This document shows, piece after piece, positions 1-6,302 of a stretch of 64,000 nt of DNA. Every line of letters begins with the position of its first letter. The stretch's first letter is position 1. The DNA lies in assembly GCA_965116535.1 (NCBI GenBank), contig OZ220703.1, forward strand, positions 961,545 through 1,025,544, in the 5' to 3' direction. The position numbers and the translations under genes were made by a program. A model generated the notes under the pieces. The model had not been told where the DNA came from. It saw nothing but the letters and a program-made list of their open reading frames with translations, and searched no databases. The DNA is from Acidimicrobiales bacterium (GTDB taxonomy: Bacteria > Actinomycetota > Acidimicrobiia > Acidimicrobiales > Bin134).

Positions 1-634
1 AGCCCCAACCGTCGTTGCAGCCCATCAGATCGGCCTTGCCGTTGCCGTCCACGTCGAACAGCGCCGCGATATCGGGATTGTTGCCGATGTCGTCGAGCAT
101 CGTGATCCCATTGGCCTCAGCAGTGGCCTTGTCCACGATGAACCCCTGCAAACCGCCGGCCACAATCTCCTGGCCTATAGGCGACACCACATCGGCCACG
201 CCGGCCTCTTGGATCAACGTGGTGTGGATCGGGAACCACCCGTTCACCCACAAGTCGTACTCGCCCTCGCCCAACGCCGGATAGAACGTCGCCGGAGCCA
301 GCTCCGCCTCAGAGGGATCAGACACCTCATAGCCCAACTCCTGCAACAGCGTCCGATAAATCGCCGCCTGCATATAACCAGTCGACCAATTCGCCCGAGC
401 CATCGACACGCTCACACCCTCACCGGGCATGGCCATCTCATCAGGCATATCCTCAGGAGCGTCAGCCTCATCAGGAGCGTCAGCCTCATCAGGAGCGTCG
501 GGCGCGTCGGGCGCCTCCTCCGGCGCCGGCCCCGCAGCCGGCGCGTCATCGTCATCATTTCCGCAACCAGCAACCACCAGCCCGAAAACCAAAAAAACGG
601 ACAACAGAACCCGCCAAAGGCTTCGCTCTCTCAT
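1..634 (-). CDS. Glycine betaine/choline-type (OpuAC/ProX-like) ABC substrate-binding lipoprotein, tandem-domain, copy 1; 3' part cut by window edge
   Basis: Region 1-719 repeats 2336-3054: track ORFs 15..284, 209..730 and 429..707 have the same translations as 2350..2619, the tail of 720..3065, and 2764..3042. The ATG (minus) at 632-634 is preceded by GGAGGG. N-terminus MRERSLWRVLLSVFLVFGLVVAGCG is a signal peptide with a lipobox. Confidence 0.8.
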   Translation of the reverse strand, partial: MRERSLWRVLLSVFLVFGLVVAGCGNDDDDAPAAGPAPEEAPDAPDAPDEADAPDEADAPEDMPDEMAMPGEGVSVSMARANWSTGYMQAAIYRTLLQELGYEVSDPSEAELAPATFYPALGEGEYDLWVNGWFPIHTTLIQEAGVADVVSPIGQEIVAGGLQGFIVDKATAEANGITMLDDIGNNPDIAALFDVDGNGKADLMGCNDGWG

Positions 635-762
635 AGGAATCCCTCCAATCGACAAAAAGCCTGGCGCGCCCAAACACGCGCCAACCCGATTTGGTGCAAC
701 ACCCTAAACCAAACCAGCTTTGACCGCTAGAGACTCTGAAATAGAACGTTCAAAATTGATTC

Positions 763-788
763 GGGGCCCGCCCTCTCGAGCGGGCCCC
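763..788 (-). terminator. Intrinsic-terminator-like hairpin after SBP copy 2
   Basis: A perfect 9-bp stem GGGGCCCGC/GCGGGCCCC lies 60 nt past the stop at 849. On the minus strand a TTTT-containing tail (GAATCAATTTTGAA) follows it. Confidence 0.6.
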
Positions 789-848
789 GAACATTTGGTT
801 GACTTTGCTCAGCCCCTTCCGGGAGCTAGAACCGATCAGCCCCAACGA

Positions 849-2969
849 TCACGCTGCGGCCCTTGCTGCGGCGAGCCATTCGTCGACCGTGGCCTGGTTG
901 GCGGCGATCCAGTCGTCGGCCGCGGCCTGCACGTCGGCCTCGGTGTTGGCGCCGCCGTCGTAGGCCAGGTTCTGCAAAGCGATGTCGATCACCGGGATCG
1001 TCACCAGCTCCAACAGCTTGGCCGCAGCCGGGTTAGCCACCAAGAACTCGTTGGAGGCCACAACGCGGATGTCGGCGGCCACGAAGCCCATCTCGCAGGG
1101 CTGGCCCGGACACTGGTCAGCGGGCAGCGCCGCCGCGCCAACCTGGCTCTCCAGCGGATTGCCCACAGACACCCAGATCACATCGCTTCCCGGCACCAGC
1201 TCAGCGGTGAACGCGCCCGGCGTCCAGATGTACTGCAAGATCGACTCGCCCCGGTTGAACCGGCCCACCGAGTCCGCGAACAAAGCCGCGTGCTCCGCCG
1301 ACACCTGCTCGATGGTGTCCTCCCAGCCGTTCTGGGCGATGGTGTCGTTGATCACCACCTGACAGCCCCAACCGTCGTTGCAGCCCATCAGATCGGCCTT
1401 GCCGTTGCCGTCCACGTCGAACAGCGCCGCGATATCGGGATTGTTGCCGATGTCGTCGAGCATCGTGATCCCATTGGCCTCAGCAGTGGCCTTGTCCACG
1501 ATGAACCCCTGCAAACCGCCGGCCACAATCTCCTGGCCTATAGGCGACACCACATCGGCCACGCCGGCCTCTTGGATCAACGTGGTGTGGATCGGGAACC
1601 ACCCGTTCACCCACAAGTCGTACTCGCCCTCGCCCAACGCCGGATAGAACGTCGCCGGAGCCAGCTCCGCCTCAGAGGGATCAGACACCTCATAGCCCAA
1701 CTCCTGCAACAGCGTCCGATAAATCGCCGCCTGCATATAACCAGTCGACCAATTCGCCCGAGCCATCGACACGCTCACACCCTCGCCCGGGGTATCGCTC
1801 ATCGGCTCCGGTGCCGCGGGGGTGAAGCCGCTGGCGTTGCGGGCTTCTTCGAGCCAGGCGTCGATGGTGGCGCGGTTGGCGGCGATCCAGTCGTCGGCCG
1901 CGGCCTGCACGTCGGCCTCGGTGTTGGCGCCGCCGTCGTAGGCCAGGTTCTGCAAAGCGATGTCGATCACCGGGATCGTCACCAGCTCCAACAGCTTGGC
2001 CGCAGCCGGGTTAGCCACCAAGAACTCGTTGGAGGCCACAACGCGGATGTCGGCGGCCACGAAGCCCATCTCGCAGGGCTGGCCCGGACACTGGTCAGCG
2101 GGCAGCGCGCCAACCTGAGAGGGCAGCGGATTGCCCACAGACACCCAGATCACATCGCTTCCCGGCACCAGCTCAGCGGTGAACGCGCCCGGCGTCCAGA
2201 TGTACTGCAAGATCGACTCGCCCCGGTTGAACCGGCCCACCGAGTCCGCGAACAAAGCCGCGTGCTCCGCCGACACCTGCTCGATGGTGTCCTCCCAGCC
2301 GTTCTGGGCGATGGTGTCGTTGATCACCACCTGACAGCCCCAACCGTCGTTGCAGCCCATCAGATCGGCCTTGCCGTTGCCGTCCACGTCGAACAGCGCC
2401 GCGATATCGGGATTGTTGCCGATGTCGTCGAGCATCGTGATCCCATTGGCCTCAGCAGTGGCCTTGTCCACGATGAACCCCTGCAAACCGCCGGCCACAA
2501 TCTCCTGGCCTATAGGCGACACCACATCGGCCACGCCGGCCTCTTGGATCAACGTGGTGTGGATCGGGAACCACCCGTTCACCCACAAGTCGTACTCGCC
2601 CTCGCCCAACGCCGGATAGAACGTCGCCGGAGCCAGCTCCGCCTCAGAGGGATCAGACACCTCATAGCCCAACTCCTGCAACAGCGTCCGATAAATCGCC
2701 GCCTGCATATAACCAGTCGACCAATTCGCCCGAGCCATCGACACGCTCACACCCTCACCGGGCATGGCCATCTCATCAGGCATATCCTCAGGAGCGTCAG
2801 CCTCATCAGGAGCGTCAGCCTCATCAGGAGCGTCGGGCGCGTCGGGCGCCTCCTCCGGCGCCGGCCCCGCAGCCGGCGCGTCATCGTCATCATTTCCGCA
2901 ACCAGCAACCACCAGCCCGAAAACCAAAAAAACGGACAACAGAACCCGCCAAAGGCTTCGCTCTCTCAT
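849..2969 (-). CDS. Tandem-domain glycine betaine/choline-type ABC substrate-binding lipoprotein, copy 2 (two near-identical SBP domains)
   Basis: Track ORF 849..3008 was trimmed to the Met at 2969, which has an upstream GGAGGG. Lipobox VAGC is followed by an acidic PDAPDEA linker. The block GEGVSVSMARANWSTGYMQAAIYRTLLQELGYEV...WVNGWFPIH occurs twice (OpuAC-like domain). Confidence 0.85.
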   Translation of the reverse strand: MRERSLWRVLLSVFLVFGLVVAGCGNDDDDAPAAGPAPEEAPDAPDAPDEADAPDEADAPEDMPDEMAMPGEGVSVSMARANWSTGYMQAAIYRTLLQELGYEVSDPSEAELAPATFYPALGEGEYDLWVNGWFPIHTTLIQEAGVADVVSPIGQEIVAGGLQGFIVDKATAEANGITMLDDIGNNPDIAALFDVDGNGKADLMGCNDGWGCQVVINDTIAQNGWEDTIEQVSAEHAALFADSVGRFNRGESILQYIWTPGAFTAELVPGSDVIWVSVGNPLPSQVGALPADQCPGQPCEMGFVAADIRVVASNEFLVANPAAAKLLELVTIPVIDIALQNLAYDGGANTEADVQAAADDWIAANRATIDAWLEEARNASGFTPAAPEPMSDTPGEGVSVSMARANWSTGYMQAAIYRTLLQELGYEVSDPSEAELAPATFYPALGEGEYDLWVNGWFPIHTTLIQEAGVADVVSPIGQEIVAGGLQGFIVDKATAEANGITMLDDIGNNPDIAALFDVDGNGKADLMGCNDGWGCQVVINDTIAQNGWEDTIEQVSAEHAALFADSVGRFNRGESILQYIWTPGAFTAELVPGSDVIWVSVGNPLESQVGAAALPADQCPGQPCEMGFVAADIRVVASNEFLVANPAAAKLLELVTIPVIDIALQNLAYDGGANTEADVQAAADDWIAANQATVDEWLAAARAAA

Positions 2970-2988
2970 AGGAATCCCTCCAATCGAC

Positions 2989-3018
2989 AAAAAGCCTGGC
3001 GCGCCCAAACACGCGCCA
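2989..3018 (-). promoter_or_regulatory. Leader hairpin plus U-tract directly upstream of the SBP RBS (attenuator-like); copies also at 654-683 and 5312-5341
   Basis: Minus strand reads TGGCGCG-TGTTTGGG-CGCGCCA-GGCTTTTTG, then GGAGGG and ATG. The 7-bp stem is 2997-3003/3012-3018. Confidence 0.4.
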
Positions 3019-3097
3019 ACCCGATTTGGTGCAACACCCTAAACCAAACCAGCTTTGACCGCTAGAGACTCTGAAATAGAACGTTCAAAATTGATTC

Positions 3098-3123
3098 GGG
3101 GCCCGCCCTCTCGAGCGGGCCCC
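3098..3123 (-). terminator. Intrinsic-terminator-like hairpin after SBP copy 3
   Basis: Same 9-bp stem as 763-788, one repeat unit (2335 bp) further on. Confidence 0.6.
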
Positions 3124-3183
3124 GAACATTTGGTTGACTTTGCTCAGCCCCTTCCGGGAGCTAGAACCGATCAGCCCCAACGA

Positions 3184-5292
3184 TCACGCTGCGGCCCTTG
3201 CTGCGGCGAGCCATTCGTCGACCGTGGCCTGGTTGGCGGCGATCCAGTCGTCGGCCGCGGCCTGCACGTCGGCCTCGGTGTTGGCGCCGCCGTCGTAGGC
3301 CAGGTTCTGCAAAGCGATGTCGATCACCGGGATCGTCACCAGCTCCAACAGCTTGGCCGCAGCCGGGTTAGCCACCAAGAACTCGTTGGAGGCCACAACG
3401 CGGATGTCGGCGGCCACGAAGCCCATCTCGCAGGGCTGGCCCGGACACTGGTCAGCGGGCAGCGCCGCCGCGCCAACCTGGCTCTCCAGCGGATTGCCCA
3501 CAGACACCCAGATCACATCGCTTCCCGGCACCAGCTCAGCGGTGAACGCGCCCGGCGTCCAGATGTACTGCAAGATCGACTCGCCCCGGTTGAACCGGCC
3601 CACCGAGTCCGCGAACAAAGCCGCGTGCTCCGCCGACACCTGCTCGATGGTGTCCTCCCAGCCGTTCTGGGCGATGGTGTCGTTGATCACCACCTGACAG
3701 CCCCAACCGTCGTTGCAGCCCATCAGATCGGCCTTGCCGTTGCCGTCCACGTCGAACAGCGCCGCGATATCGGGATTGTTGCCGATGTCGTCGAGCATCG
3801 TGATCCCATTGGCCTCAGCAGTGGCCTTGTCCACGATGAACCCCTGCAAACCGCCGGCCACAATCTCCTGGCCTATAGGCGACACCACATCGGCCACGCC
3901 GGCCTCTTGGATCAACGTGGTGTGGATCGGGAACCACCCGTTCACCCACAAGTCGTACTCGCCCTCGCCCAACGCCGGATAGAACGTCGCCGGAGCCAGC
4001 TCCGCCTCAGAGGGATCAGACACCTCATAGCCCAACTCCTGCAACAGCGTCCGATAAATCGCCGCCTGCATATAACCAGTCGACCAATTCGCCCGAGCCA
4101 TCGACACGCTCACACCCTCGCCCGGGGTATCGCTCATCGGCTCCGGTGCCGCGGGGGTGAAGCCGCTGGCGTTGCGGGCTTCTTCGAGCCAGGCGTCGAT
4201 GGTGGCGCGGTTGGCGGCGATCCAGTCGTCGGCCGCGGCCTGCACGTCGGCCTCGGTGTTGGCGCCGCCGTCGTAGGCCAGGTTCTGCAAAGCGATGTCG
4301 ATCACCGGGATCGTCACCAGCTCCAACAGCTTGGCCGCAGCCGGGTTAGCCACCAAGAACTCGTTGGAGGCCACAACGCGGATGTCGGCGGCCACGAAGC
4401 CCATCTCGCAGGGCTGGCCCGGACACTGGTCAGCGGGCAGCGCCGCCGCGCCAACCTGAGAGGGCAGCGGATTGCCCACAGACACCCAGATCACATCGCT
4501 TCCCGGCACCAGCTCAGCGGTGAACGCGCCCGGCGTCCAGATGTACTGCAAGATCGACTCGCCCCGGTTGAACCGGCCCACCGAGTCCGCGAACAAAGCC
4601 GCGTGCTCCGCCGACACCTGCTCGATGGTGTCCTCCCAGCCGTTCTGGGCGATGGTGTCGTTGATCACCACCTGACAGCCCCAACCGTCGTTGCAGCCCA
4701 TCAGATCGGCCTTGCCGTTGCCGTCCACGTCGAACAGCGCCGCGATATCGGGATTGTTGCCGATGTCGTCGAGCATCGTGATCCCATTGGCCTCAGCAGT
4801 GGCCTTGTCCACGATGAACCCCTGCAAACCGCCGGCCACAATCTCCTGGCCTATAGGCGACACCACATCGGCCACGCCGGCCTCTTGGATCAACGTGGTG
4901 TGGATCGGGAACCACCCGTTCACCCACAAGTCGTACTCGCCCTCGCCCAACGCCGGATAGAACGTCGCCGGAGCCAGCTCCGCCTCAGAGGGATCAGACA
5001 CCTCATAGCCCAACTCCTGCAACAGCGTACGATAAATCGCCGCCTGCATATAACCAGTCGACCAATTCGCCCGAGCCATCGACACGCTCACACCCTCACC
5101 GGGCATGGCCATCTCATCAGGCATATCCTCAGGAGCGTCAGCCTCATCAGGAGCGTCGGGCGCGTCGGGCGCCTCCTCCGGCGCCGGCCCCGCAGCCGGC
5201 GCGTCATCGTCATCATTTCCGCAACCAGCAACCACCAGCCCGAAAACCAAAAAAACGGACAACAGAACCCGCCAAAGGCTTCGCTCTCTCAT
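3184..5292 (-). CDS. Tandem-domain glycine betaine/choline-type ABC substrate-binding lipoprotein, copy 3
   Basis: Track ORF 3184..5361 was trimmed to the Met at 5292 (same RBS and start context as the other copies). It differs from copy 2 only by an 18-bp and a 6-bp indel and one synonymous change near 5031. Confidence 0.85.
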   Translation of the reverse strand: MRERSLWRVLLSVFLVFGLVVAGCGNDDDDAPAAGPAPEEAPDAPDAPDEADAPEDMPDEMAMPGEGVSVSMARANWSTGYMQAAIYRTLLQELGYEVSDPSEAELAPATFYPALGEGEYDLWVNGWFPIHTTLIQEAGVADVVSPIGQEIVAGGLQGFIVDKATAEANGITMLDDIGNNPDIAALFDVDGNGKADLMGCNDGWGCQVVINDTIAQNGWEDTIEQVSAEHAALFADSVGRFNRGESILQYIWTPGAFTAELVPGSDVIWVSVGNPLPSQVGAAALPADQCPGQPCEMGFVAADIRVVASNEFLVANPAAAKLLELVTIPVIDIALQNLAYDGGANTEADVQAAADDWIAANRATIDAWLEEARNASGFTPAAPEPMSDTPGEGVSVSMARANWSTGYMQAAIYRTLLQELGYEVSDPSEAELAPATFYPALGEGEYDLWVNGWFPIHTTLIQEAGVADVVSPIGQEIVAGGLQGFIVDKATAEANGITMLDDIGNNPDIAALFDVDGNGKADLMGCNDGWGCQVVINDTIAQNGWEDTIEQVSAEHAALFADSVGRFNRGESILQYIWTPGAFTAELVPGSDVIWVSVGNPLESQVGAAALPADQCPGQPCEMGFVAADIRVVASNEFLVANPAAAKLLELVTIPVIDIALQNLAYDGGANTEADVQAAADDWIAANQATVDEWLAAARAAA

Positions 5293-5417
5293 AGGAATCC
5301 CTCCAATCGACAAAAAGCCTGGCGCGCCCAAACACGCGCCAACCCGCCTTTCGCAAACCACCCTAATTTGAACAGACCGCGAACGCTAGAGCCTGTCTGA
5401 ATTTTGTTAGGCGTCTT

Positions 5418-6302
5418 CTAGCGGCGGCGGCGGAGGCGGCGGGCGTGGGCTTCGAGCTGCTTGCGCTGTTTGCGGGTGAGGCTGTCCAGCCCTTGGCTGG
5501 CCACTTGATCGAGAAGGGCGTCGATCTCGGGGGAGACCGATTCATCACGGGTAGGGATTGACCGCAGATGTTCCCGGCCTCGACCCCGTCGACGAGACCT
5601 CGAAGGGCGAGCTTCGGTTGCAGTCTGACTCGAGGCCGAGGCAAAGGACAGCTTCGGAATCCATGTGAGGTTGGTGGCGTAGCCGAACGCCCGAATTCCA
5701 AACAGCGCCACAGCCACCGTGCAGGCCAGAACGATCAAGGCGAACCAGTTGCGGTTGCCCAAGGCTTGGATGGCATCGAGTCCGACGATAACGACGGCGA
5801 TCACCCAGCCGGGAATGCCGGGCCAGAACCGGGCGTGGGCGTATTGGGCGGCAAAGGCCACCAGCACCCCGACTTCCACCATTCGCAGGCCAGCCACATA
5901 ACCATCAATGCCGGTCGCCGCTTCCACTCCAGTCACAATCACGGCGGGAACAAGGGTGAGGGCAACCAGGAAGAACGCGAATCGCCAGCGTCCCAGCAGA
6001 GACTCAATCTGGGAGCCCAGCATGTAGAAGATGGCGAACAGGATGATCGTCCAGAAGTGGGGCTCATTGGGAATTGGCCAGGTGACTAGCCGCCAGATGT
6101 CCCCTTCCACCACGCTTCCGAGCTGGTAGTTCTCCGAGATCAGCACCAACTCGCGAAAGATGGGTCCGAAGCGGCCTTCAATCCCCCAGATGATCATCGA
6201 GATCACACCGAGACCGACCACGAACGCAGTGGTAGAGACCGGGAACGTTCCGATGCGGAACCAGGGGTCGTCGCTGTAGCCGAAGCGCCGTGAGGGATAC
6301 AT
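5418..6302 (-). CDS. Rhomboid-fold membrane protein, apparently catalytically inactive
   Basis: Track ORF 5418..6428 was trimmed to the Met at 6302, 2 nt after the sulfatase stop. It has WRLVTWP...H....LGSQIESLLGRWRF (rhomboid TM2/L1-like pattern). The GxSG position reads GIDG and no AHxGG-type His motif was seen. The tail is basic and helical. Confidence 0.6.
   Translation of the reverse strand: MYPSRRFGYSDDPWFRIGTFPVSTTAFVVGLGVISMIIWGIEGRFGPIFRELVLISENYQLGSVVEGDIWRLVTWPIPNEPHFWTIILFAIFYMLGSQIESLLGRWRFAFFLVALTLVPAVIVTGVEAATGIDGYVAGLRMVEVGVLVAFAAQYAHARFWPGIPGWVIAVVIVGLDAIQALGNRNWFALIVLACTVAVALFGIRAFGYATNLTWIPKLSFASASSQTATEARPSRSRRRGRGREHLRSIPTRDESVSPEIDALLDQVASQGLDSLTRKQRKQLEAHARRLRRRR

Follow-up and report, generated by a model that had tools for sequence, protein, structure and literature searches.

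Concerted evolution is itself well known, and in bacteria it is exemplified by rRNA operons, by tufA/tufB and by the identical tandem repeats of the streptococcal Rib/alpha-C surface proteins. Binding proteins set the affinity and capacity of ATP-binding cassette (ABC) importers, and their multi-domain forms have been studied mainly in two transporters of Lactococcus. These L. lactis systems are GlnPQ, which has tandem binding domains, and OpuA; in both, binding is by domains fused to the permease, with several binding sites per transporter (PMC8025302). Among the top-ranked matches of a full-text literature search, none linked concerted evolution with substrate-binding proteins (SBPs). The locus described here is a tandem array of OpuAC (ProX-type) binding domains at the start of a 64,000-nt stretch, hereafter the window, of the genome of an Acidimicrobiales bacterium (assembly GCA_965116535.1, contig OZ220703.1, here C1). 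The window covers C1:961545-1025544 of a single gap-free contig of 3,697,415 bp (64.3% GC), and the array lies far from the contig ends. We consider it quite probable that the modules of this array are homogenised by a process that acts across a whole clade, that one of its genes, gene B, is a recent addition, that its products would capture betaine for a ProV-ProW importer, and that the locus would also serve a second importer of the Bmp type.

Anatomy of the array and its modules

The array is encoded on the minus strand and consists of three genes with five OpuAC modules, 6.8 kb in total. An earlier note on this DNA, made from the letters of the window alone, had described nested direct repeats at 1-5348, and these were recovered with the same positions and spacings, including the internal period of 972/978 nt. 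A 300-nt reference sequence occurs five times, at window positions 1, 1364, 2336, 3699 and 4677 (spacings 1363/972/1363/978), and a 221-nt repeat family shows spacings of 2335/2323. The 2335-bp unit that the note had counted at least 2.3 times does have a real period, but the array comprises three genes, the first of which is an OpuAC-Bmp fusion; the four complete modules and one partial module are indeed five copies, but the partial one belongs to this different gene. Nor does the array extend far outside the window, as the note had allowed: sequence resembling the 2,335-nt unit reaches only 525 nt past the window start, and gene A continues as a Bmp domain. Genes, modules and the differences between the two gene-level periods are the following.

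Gene C, 3184..5292, minus strand: OpuAC–OpuAC lipoprotein, 702 aa from the ATG at 5292; the open reading frame (ORF) reaches a GTG at 5361 (3184-5361, 725 aa)
OpuAC module C_D1, 4210..5100, minus strand: 891 nt
OpuAC module C_D2, 3232..4122, minus strand: 891 nt, 100% identical to B_D2
Gene B, 849..2969, minus strand: second OpuAC–OpuAC lipoprotein, 706 aa from the ATG at 2969 (ORF 849-3008, 719 aa)
OpuAC module B_D1, 1875..2759, minus strand: 885 nt, without GCGGCG (Ala-Ala)
OpuAC module B_D2, 897..1787, minus strand: 891 nt
Gene A, 5' part, 1..634, minus strand: OpuAC–Bmp (PF04069+PF02608) lipoprotein, continuing 1,444 nt past the window start; the whole gene is C1:960100-962178, 705 aa by ORF and 692 aa from the ATG at 634
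OpuAC module A_D1, window part, 1..424, minus strand: the module runs on for 466 nt outside the window
Substitution between periods, window 5029 (T) versus 2688 (G), minus strand: CGT/CGG, synonymous
GCGGCG indel, 4444..4449, minus strand: in C_D1, missing from B_D1
Double-ABC ATPase, C1:958522-960078, after gene A: 518 aa, two ABC_tran domains

Proteins B and C share one layout, in which a signal peptide with a lipobox (…LVVAGC) is followed by an acidic Pro/Asp/Ala tether of 45-60 residues between lipobox and domain 1, by domain 1, by a Pro/Ala linker of ~15 residues and by domain 2. Each of genes B and C gives two PF04069 (OpuAC) matches over profile positions 2-256 of 257, at 236 bits against a cut-off of 21.2. 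The N-terminal half of gene A matches this layout (leader, signal peptide, tether and one OpuAC domain) and is joined to a Bmp/PnrA-type domain (PF02608, 129.6 bits against a cut-off of 24.1). Beyond gene A's ATPase lies a sigma-70 gene on the opposite strand.

Pairwise nucleotide identity among the five modules is 99.1-100% over an 891-nt core, and the differences are of four kinds: (i) one substitution, in C_D1; (ii) a 6-nt block that reads CCCTCT (Pro-Ser) in B_D1 and C_D1 and GAGAGC (Glu-Ser) in both D2 modules and in A_D1; (iii) a 6-nt deletion in B_D1; and (iv) two kinds of C-terminal tail, one an internal linker and the other a terminal …AAARAAA-stop. That copies differ only by in-frame indels and one synonymous substitution, as had been stated from the letters, is correct for the gene-level periods (2,341 and 2,335 nt), between which there are just two differences, one synonymous substitution and the GCGGCG indel, but not for the modules, where the 6-nt block and the two tails have to be added. 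A_D1 is a mosaic that carries the 6-nt block of the D2 modules and the tail of the D1 modules, which suggests patchy transfer between modules.

Homogenisation and expansion of the modules

The history of these near-identical modules is best read by comparison with relatives. In a nucleotide matrix of six independently assembled genomes (the source genome, L006, G001, L009, L008 and L010, with L007 compared in addition), modules are 99.1-100% identical within a genome and 64-94% identical between genomes. The sister genome L006, a 3.73-Mb contig, has three modules that are 100% identical to one another over 870 nt and 90-91% identical to the source modules; its single-copy Bmp half, ATPase, DUF6576 gene and sulfatase gene are 82-85% identical to those of the source (15-18% different). 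Its neighbourhood is that of the source genome, namely P450, Baeyer–Villiger monooxygenase (BVMO), sulfatase, DUF6576, one double OpuAC gene, the OpuAC-Bmp gene, the ATPase, …, sigma-70 and NAD synthase, and the order sulfatase–DUF6576–(OpuAC)2–(OpuAC-Bmp)–ATPase–sigma70 is found in L006, L009 and G001. The comparison with relatives that the earlier note had called for thus shows domain repeats and synteny to be shared but the second double gene to be unshared. Between the ATPase and the sigma-70 gene, L006 also holds an N6-methyltransferase, an NspV-like gene, transposase/integrase fragments and a PIN toxin (L006 13870-19416), which are absent from the source genome.

The fusion gene and a dispersed paralog extend this pattern. 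Across the genus, the Bmp half of the fusion gene is 91-96% identical to the source and the ATPase 91%, the OpuAC half 47-95%, and wherever nucleotides were compared the OpuAC half is the same as the neighbouring double gene of its own genome. A single-domain paralog at 3.62 Mb shares 83.5% identity with its counterpart in G001 and 82-84% with either array; it is not homogenised, so a copy outside the array diverges like an ordinary gene. A survey of named genomes, chromosome-level metagenome-assembled genomes (MAGs) labelled Candidatus Poriferisocius or Acidimicrobiales, found 98-100% module identity at nine of 13 loci with at least two modules. In L051, L053, L054 and L056 the Bmp lipoprotein consists of signal peptide and Bmp only, without OpuAC, so the heterofusion is polymorphic within the genus.

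At the protein level, 460 relatives came out of a search through 5.8 billion proteins, and the best 120 were analysed for domains. At least two OpuAC domains occur in 57 of these best 120, and in 49 of the 57 the internal domains are 89-100% identical in amino acids, yet only 46-52% identical to the source modules. In a maximum-likelihood tree of 184 OpuAC domains with SH-aLRT support, D1 and D2 of one protein fall together in more than 25 lineages, mostly at SH-aLRT values of at least 95. The exceptions, in which D1s group together and D2s group together, are the young groups P0033-35 and P0025-28 and an old clade (P0008-18), and there the duplication must be older than the splits. L007, a member of the old clade that encodes an OpuAC-OpuAC-Bmp protein, has modules that are 67% identical. 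Judged from the domain searches and the tree, the double-domain architecture is old and widespread.

These data bear directly on two other explanations of the near-identity. One is a single, very recent amplification, whose copies would be alike through youth and without long-term homogenisation; gene-level periods that differ by no more than one substitution and an extra gene that is lineage-specific are what it would leave. Yet the double and fusion genes are syntenic in genomes whose single-copy genes are 15-18% apart and whose modules are up to 34% apart, each set being internally identical; D1 and D2 pair within proteins in those more than 25 lineages; and the Bmp half of the fusion is orthologous where its OpuAC half is genome-specific. 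We therefore regard a one-off event as very unlikely, and the recent amplification proposed in the earlier note is supported for the second double gene only, the domain-level repeat being shared by relatives.

The other explanation is strong purifying selection on the protein, which would keep the domains identical without recombination. Selection on the modules does appear strong, as they are 90-93% identical in nucleotides between genomes where the flanks are 82-88%; but identity reaches silent sites, which lie beyond protein selection, within genomes, 870-951 nt of module sequence are 100% identical, against 7-35% of nucleotides differing between orthologs; differences within genomes are neither mainly synonymous nor as numerous as those between genomes; and the dispersed paralog, although similarly constrained, now stands at 83%. 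Silent-site identity excludes purifying selection as the cause and leaves concerted evolution, so that we give the former a negligible probability.

Three hallmarks of concerted evolution are found at this locus: identity is higher within than between genomes, silent sites included, shared architecture and synteny place the duplication before the species splits, and a copy outside the array has diverged normally. The sequence comparisons thus strongly support clade-wide concerted evolution of the domain-level repeat by gene conversion and/or unequal crossover, and the ongoing gene conversion that had been listed among the possible causes gains equally strong support at the domain level and across the clade from within- versus between-genome identity, the tree and the fusion mosaic. 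In the mechanism that we propose, homologous recombination among modules, through non-reciprocal gene conversion and cycles of unequal crossover, would homogenise them continually. As a test for GC-biased conversion, GC content at third codon positions (GC3) was compared between modules and neighbouring genes, and it is higher in the modules of the source genome and L006 and lower in those of L009.

Gene B would represent a further outcome of recombination of this kind. From the 5' leader through signal peptide and tether it is identical to gene A, and the remainder matches gene C. One unequal crossover, joining gene A's module to the first module of gene C over a distance of 2,335 nt, would have created the gene with exactly this composition; if the crossover is placed between module positions 72 and 637, the single substitution difference is explained and only the 6-nt slippage indel is younger, which fits an origin since which no substitution is required. 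The second double gene is absent from all other chromosome-level relatives examined, where the locus has two or three modules, and module number at the locus across the genus is 2, 3 or 5. The five-module state may be the expansion phase of the same recombination that homogenises the array.

Alternatively, the second double gene (one 2,335-nt period) might be a product of assembly, in which strain variants or a wrongly resolved repeat, for instance, had added a period to a locus that really has three modules, as in relatives. The extra gene is indeed found only in the source genome among chromosome-level relatives, the gene-level periods are almost identical, and contigs of short-read MAGs break at the module. 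Such repeats can also mislead long-read assembly: L021 (ena:ERZ25068833:ctg51003_0x_c), a '0x' circular contig of 12,427 bp (12.4 kb) in a related data set, consists only of ~12 head-to-tail OpuAC modules with a period of 980/981 nt and is almost certainly an assembler artefact that they produced. On the other side, the source contig is one gap-free sequence of 3.7 Mb in which the array is internal and, at 6.8 kb, short enough for long reads to span; small differences distinguish the copies (the 6-nt indel, one single-nucleotide polymorphism and, in the tether of gene C, an 18-nt unit); and the junctions yield intact genes in precisely the structure expected from one unequal crossover. We consider an artefactual gene B unlikely. 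For the domain-level repeats, which recur across many independent assemblies, the artefact that the earlier note had raised is very unlikely, its risk being near zero.

Short-read contigs L041, L042, L045, L046 and L048 and G002-G017 begin or end inside the OpuAC-Bmp gene at a module boundary, and fragmented genomes show one module. With such collapses and breaks in short-read MAGs and artefact contigs from long reads, the capacity of these symbionts for osmolyte and methylated-amine transport is easily mis-counted.

Smaller features of the array accompany the genes in parallel copies.

18-nt tandem repeat, 2788..2834, minus strand: 2.6 copies, encoding DAPDEA in the acidic tether; second instance at 453-499; gene C has one unit fewer
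Terminator-like GC-rich hairpin, 3095..3126, minus strand: 12 bp (10 GC), then a T-run, in the spacer past the gene C stop; identical copy at 760-791 past gene B
Leader hairpin, 5319..5342, minus strand: TTGGCGCG-N8-CGCGCCAG then GCTTTTTG, a 9-bp stem ~25 nt ahead of the ribosome-binding site (RBS) and ATG; identical at 2996-3019 and 661-684

The leader hairpin with GCTTTTTG may act in attenuation; in front of gene C it may instead terminate transcription of the DUF6576 gene upstream. An Rfam scan of window 1-5700 gave only two sub-threshold greA-leader matches on the wrong strand, with no riboswitch and no family for the leader hairpin, and a consensus scan for a sigma-70-like promoter at the array found none. 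The start codons are likely the ATGs at 5292, 2969 and 634 rather than the longer ORF starts, because homologs begin MRER… and there is a common RBS, GGAGGG.

Predicted ligand and importer partners

By profile and structure matches, the module is a member of the ProX/OpuAC family. The double proteins score 574 bits against the ProX equivalog NF008334 (cut-off 215), and the best solved structure for the module is E. coli ProX, 1R9L, aligned over its full length (E=5e-53). Trp65 and Trp188 are named as residues of the ProX ligand box in PMC8601584, which cites Schiefner 2004. W65, H69, C136, W140, G141, C142 and W188 of 1R9L are identical in the modules, and the prolines two residues past W65 and W188 are retained. 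W140, H69 and G141/C142 likewise belong to the betaine site of ProX, which comprises an aromatic (Trp) box and residues that contact the carboxylate.

The window contains no betaine-type ATPase, as the earlier note had observed of permease and ATPase genes of a betaine transporter, and the search elsewhere in the genome that it had recommended located a proV-proW pair 33 kb upstream of the array. The source genome encodes nine OpuAC domains and two ProV-class ATPases above cut-off. The ProV at C1:927 kb has a CBS domain and scores 366 bits against 326.6 (TIGR01186), a ProW-like gene comes next (the two spanning C1:926.9-930.5 kb), and no SBP gene lies beside the pair. The operon reads perm1-perm2-proV-proW-MFS, the last gene encoding a major facilitator superfamily (MFS) protein, and starts at a divergent promoter. 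ProW itself has 681 aa (C1:928427-930472, plus strand; L003 7428-9473), of which residues 22-298 match ProW; it contains no OpuAC match. In relatives ProW has 676-776 aa, with C-terminal parts that cannot be aligned with the source ProW.

In four relatives proV-proW lies directly beside the double gene, in these orders:

L009: DUF6576-proV-proW-(OpuAC)2-(OpuAC-Bmp)-ATPase
L020: DUF6576-(OpuAC)2-proV-proW
L008 and L010: proV-proW-(OpuAC)2

Within the genus proV-proW thus takes three positions: it precedes the double gene, follows it, or lies between perm2 and the MFS gene at a distance of 33-38 kb. The neighbours of the double gene include a dimethylglycine-dehydrogenase-like gene, electron-transfer flavoprotein (ETF) genes and corrinoid methyltransferase genes in L008, and formyltetrahydrofolate synthetase (FTHFS) and formate dehydrogenase genes in L010, which is compatible with the uptake of a betaine-type compound for catabolism. 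In G018, the ProV, ProW and OpuAC proteins are only 61%, 44% and 46-49% identical to those of the source, and the flanking genes 87-94%; this suggests that the whole betaine module was replaced there by a different allele class.

On this basis, the OpuAC domains would bind glycine betaine, or a closely related quaternary amine, and pass it to the ProV-ProW importer, and the tandem, repeated domains would raise the number of binding sites held beside the translocator, a dosage for which there may be selection. The domains might instead be tethered sensors, or an extracellular ligand buffer, that do not dock to ProV-ProW. The locus of the source genome has no permease, and OpuAC domains are fused not only to the Bmp domain but also to a glutamate-receptor-like channel (C1:1.937 Mb). 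Yet proV-proW flanks the double gene in the four relatives listed, the only ProVW of the source genome without an SBP is a natural partner, and the full ProX ligand box is retained, so that a sensor or buffer role seems decidedly unlikely to us.

The channel fusion is a protein of 698 aa (C1:1936883-1938979, plus strand; L005 3884-5980) in which an N-terminal OpuAC domain is joined to a glutamate-receptor-like ligand-gated channel (SBP_bac_3, Lig_chan, Ion_trans_2). Its gene directly follows another OpuAC binding-protein gene, and similar frames of 698-708 aa occur in G015 and G018. A separate locus at 3.105 Mb (C1:3104898-3109300; L004 1899-6301) encodes an OpuAC binding protein, a GMC oxidoreductase (choline-dehydrogenase-like) and the second ProV-class ATPase, and is probably a system of its own for choline uptake/oxidation.

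The Bmp half of gene A points to another importer besides ProV-ProW. The products of perm1 and perm2 (BPD_transp_2), the double ATPase and the Bmp half each best match a different subunit of one NCBIfam system (NF047927-30). In five genomes perm1 occurs as a single copy that is 94-96% conserved and lies at 38-40 kb from the SBP locus, and in G018 perm1-perm2 is an orphan pair standing alone. Bmp permeases adjoining the array were considered and ruled out, since none of 59 BPD_transp_2 matches is adjacent to it and the partner pair lies at 925 kb. The Bmp half would thus serve a second importer made up of the adjacent double ATPase and the two orphan BPD_transp_2 permeases beside proV-proW, and from these gene assignments we infer a Bmp-type importer that is split over two loci.

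Several observations weigh against the combined account of homogenisation, recent expansion and two importers given at the outset. Homogenisation is not universal and can lapse: besides the less homogenised loci L027 (84%), L028 (93-95%), L029 (94.6/100%) and L030 (88.9/100%), with lapses evident in L027, L028 and L030 and in the older clade (49-63%), eight relatives (P0008, P0011, P0012 and P0014-P0018) have internal domains that diverged to 49-63%. The data are compatible alike with gene conversion and with repeated contraction and re-expansion. The five-module count, and gene B especially, is known from one assembly; an exact-protein look-up found no copy of proteins B and C in other assemblies (nor any match for P0006), and the modules-only contig L021 demonstrates that repeats of this type can generate artefacts. 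On the transport side, ProW scores 252 bits against an equivalog cut-off of 439, and its remaining ~380 C-terminal residues are an unmatched, strongly hydrophobic, multi-helix membrane extension. The four NF047927-30 matches all fall below their cut-offs (84/400, 514/670, 163/400 and 187/465). The ligand, the expression of the array and the docking to ProW are predictions throughout.

Relation to established systems

The source organism is a sponge-associated actinobacterium whose genome is Candidatus Poriferisocius-like, and it belongs to a clade of marine, largely sponge-associated Acidimicrobiales with DNA-identical pairs of betaine-type domains and with chains that join two importer classes. 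The two papers that name Poriferisocius are coral microbiome surveys, and PMC11706023 does not mention betaine. The locus offers a clean natural case of bacterial concerted evolution acting on a functional protein domain, with what appears to be a snapshot of an expansion step. More speculatively, and in our estimate with rather less than even chances, the array may be an evolved, recombination-driven 'binding-domain antenna', in which unequal crossover between homogeneous modules would change the number of betaine sites per cell quickly and reversibly, OpuAC-Bmp would physically couple two different ABC importers whose membrane parts are co-transcribed (perm1-perm2-proV-proW), and module identity would be selected. 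If this tentative idea is true, domain identity is selected rather than merely tolerated.

Compared with the established bacterial cases of concerted evolution (rRNA operons, tufA/tufB and Rib repeats), the array is alike in that paralogs are closer within a genome than orthologs are between genomes, silent sites included, and in that copy number varies by recombination. It differs in that the repeat is a whole 300-aa binding domain of an ABC importer, in that domain and gene level are affected together, and in that half of a heterofusion gene is overwritten. The Bmp-type components can be set beside the 'putative B6 ABC transporter' of NF047927-30 (BMP/PnrA family), of which the four proteins each match their own subunit; here the system is spread over two loci 33 kb apart, its binding protein has an extra N-terminal OpuAC domain, and the scores are below cut-off.

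The likeness to E. coli ProX/ProU (PDB 1R9L, 1R9Q) comprises the full-length alignment, the Trp65/Trp140/Trp188 box, His69, the Cys136-Cys142 pair with Gly141, and the ProV- and ProW-like partner genes. Unlike E. coli ProX, the proteins considered here are predicted to be lipid-anchored through an acidic tether of 45-60 aa, their domains are doubled or fused to Bmp and present in five copies away from proVW, and the ProW partner has an extra membrane region of 380 aa. With GlnPQ and OpuA they share the placing of several binding domains on one chain near the translocator, and OpuA is of the same OpuAC class. In those transporters, however, a covalent fusion joins binding and membrane domains, and the binding domains of GlnPQ differ in specificity, whereas here the binding domains form a separate lipoprotein and are identical in DNA. 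By their domain make-up, the array proteins would work like GlnPQ-type fusions but are not members of that type, since they have a lipobox and lack a permease domain; and one chain of the array, that of gene A, joins binding domains of two importer classes, which neither GlnPQ nor OpuA does.

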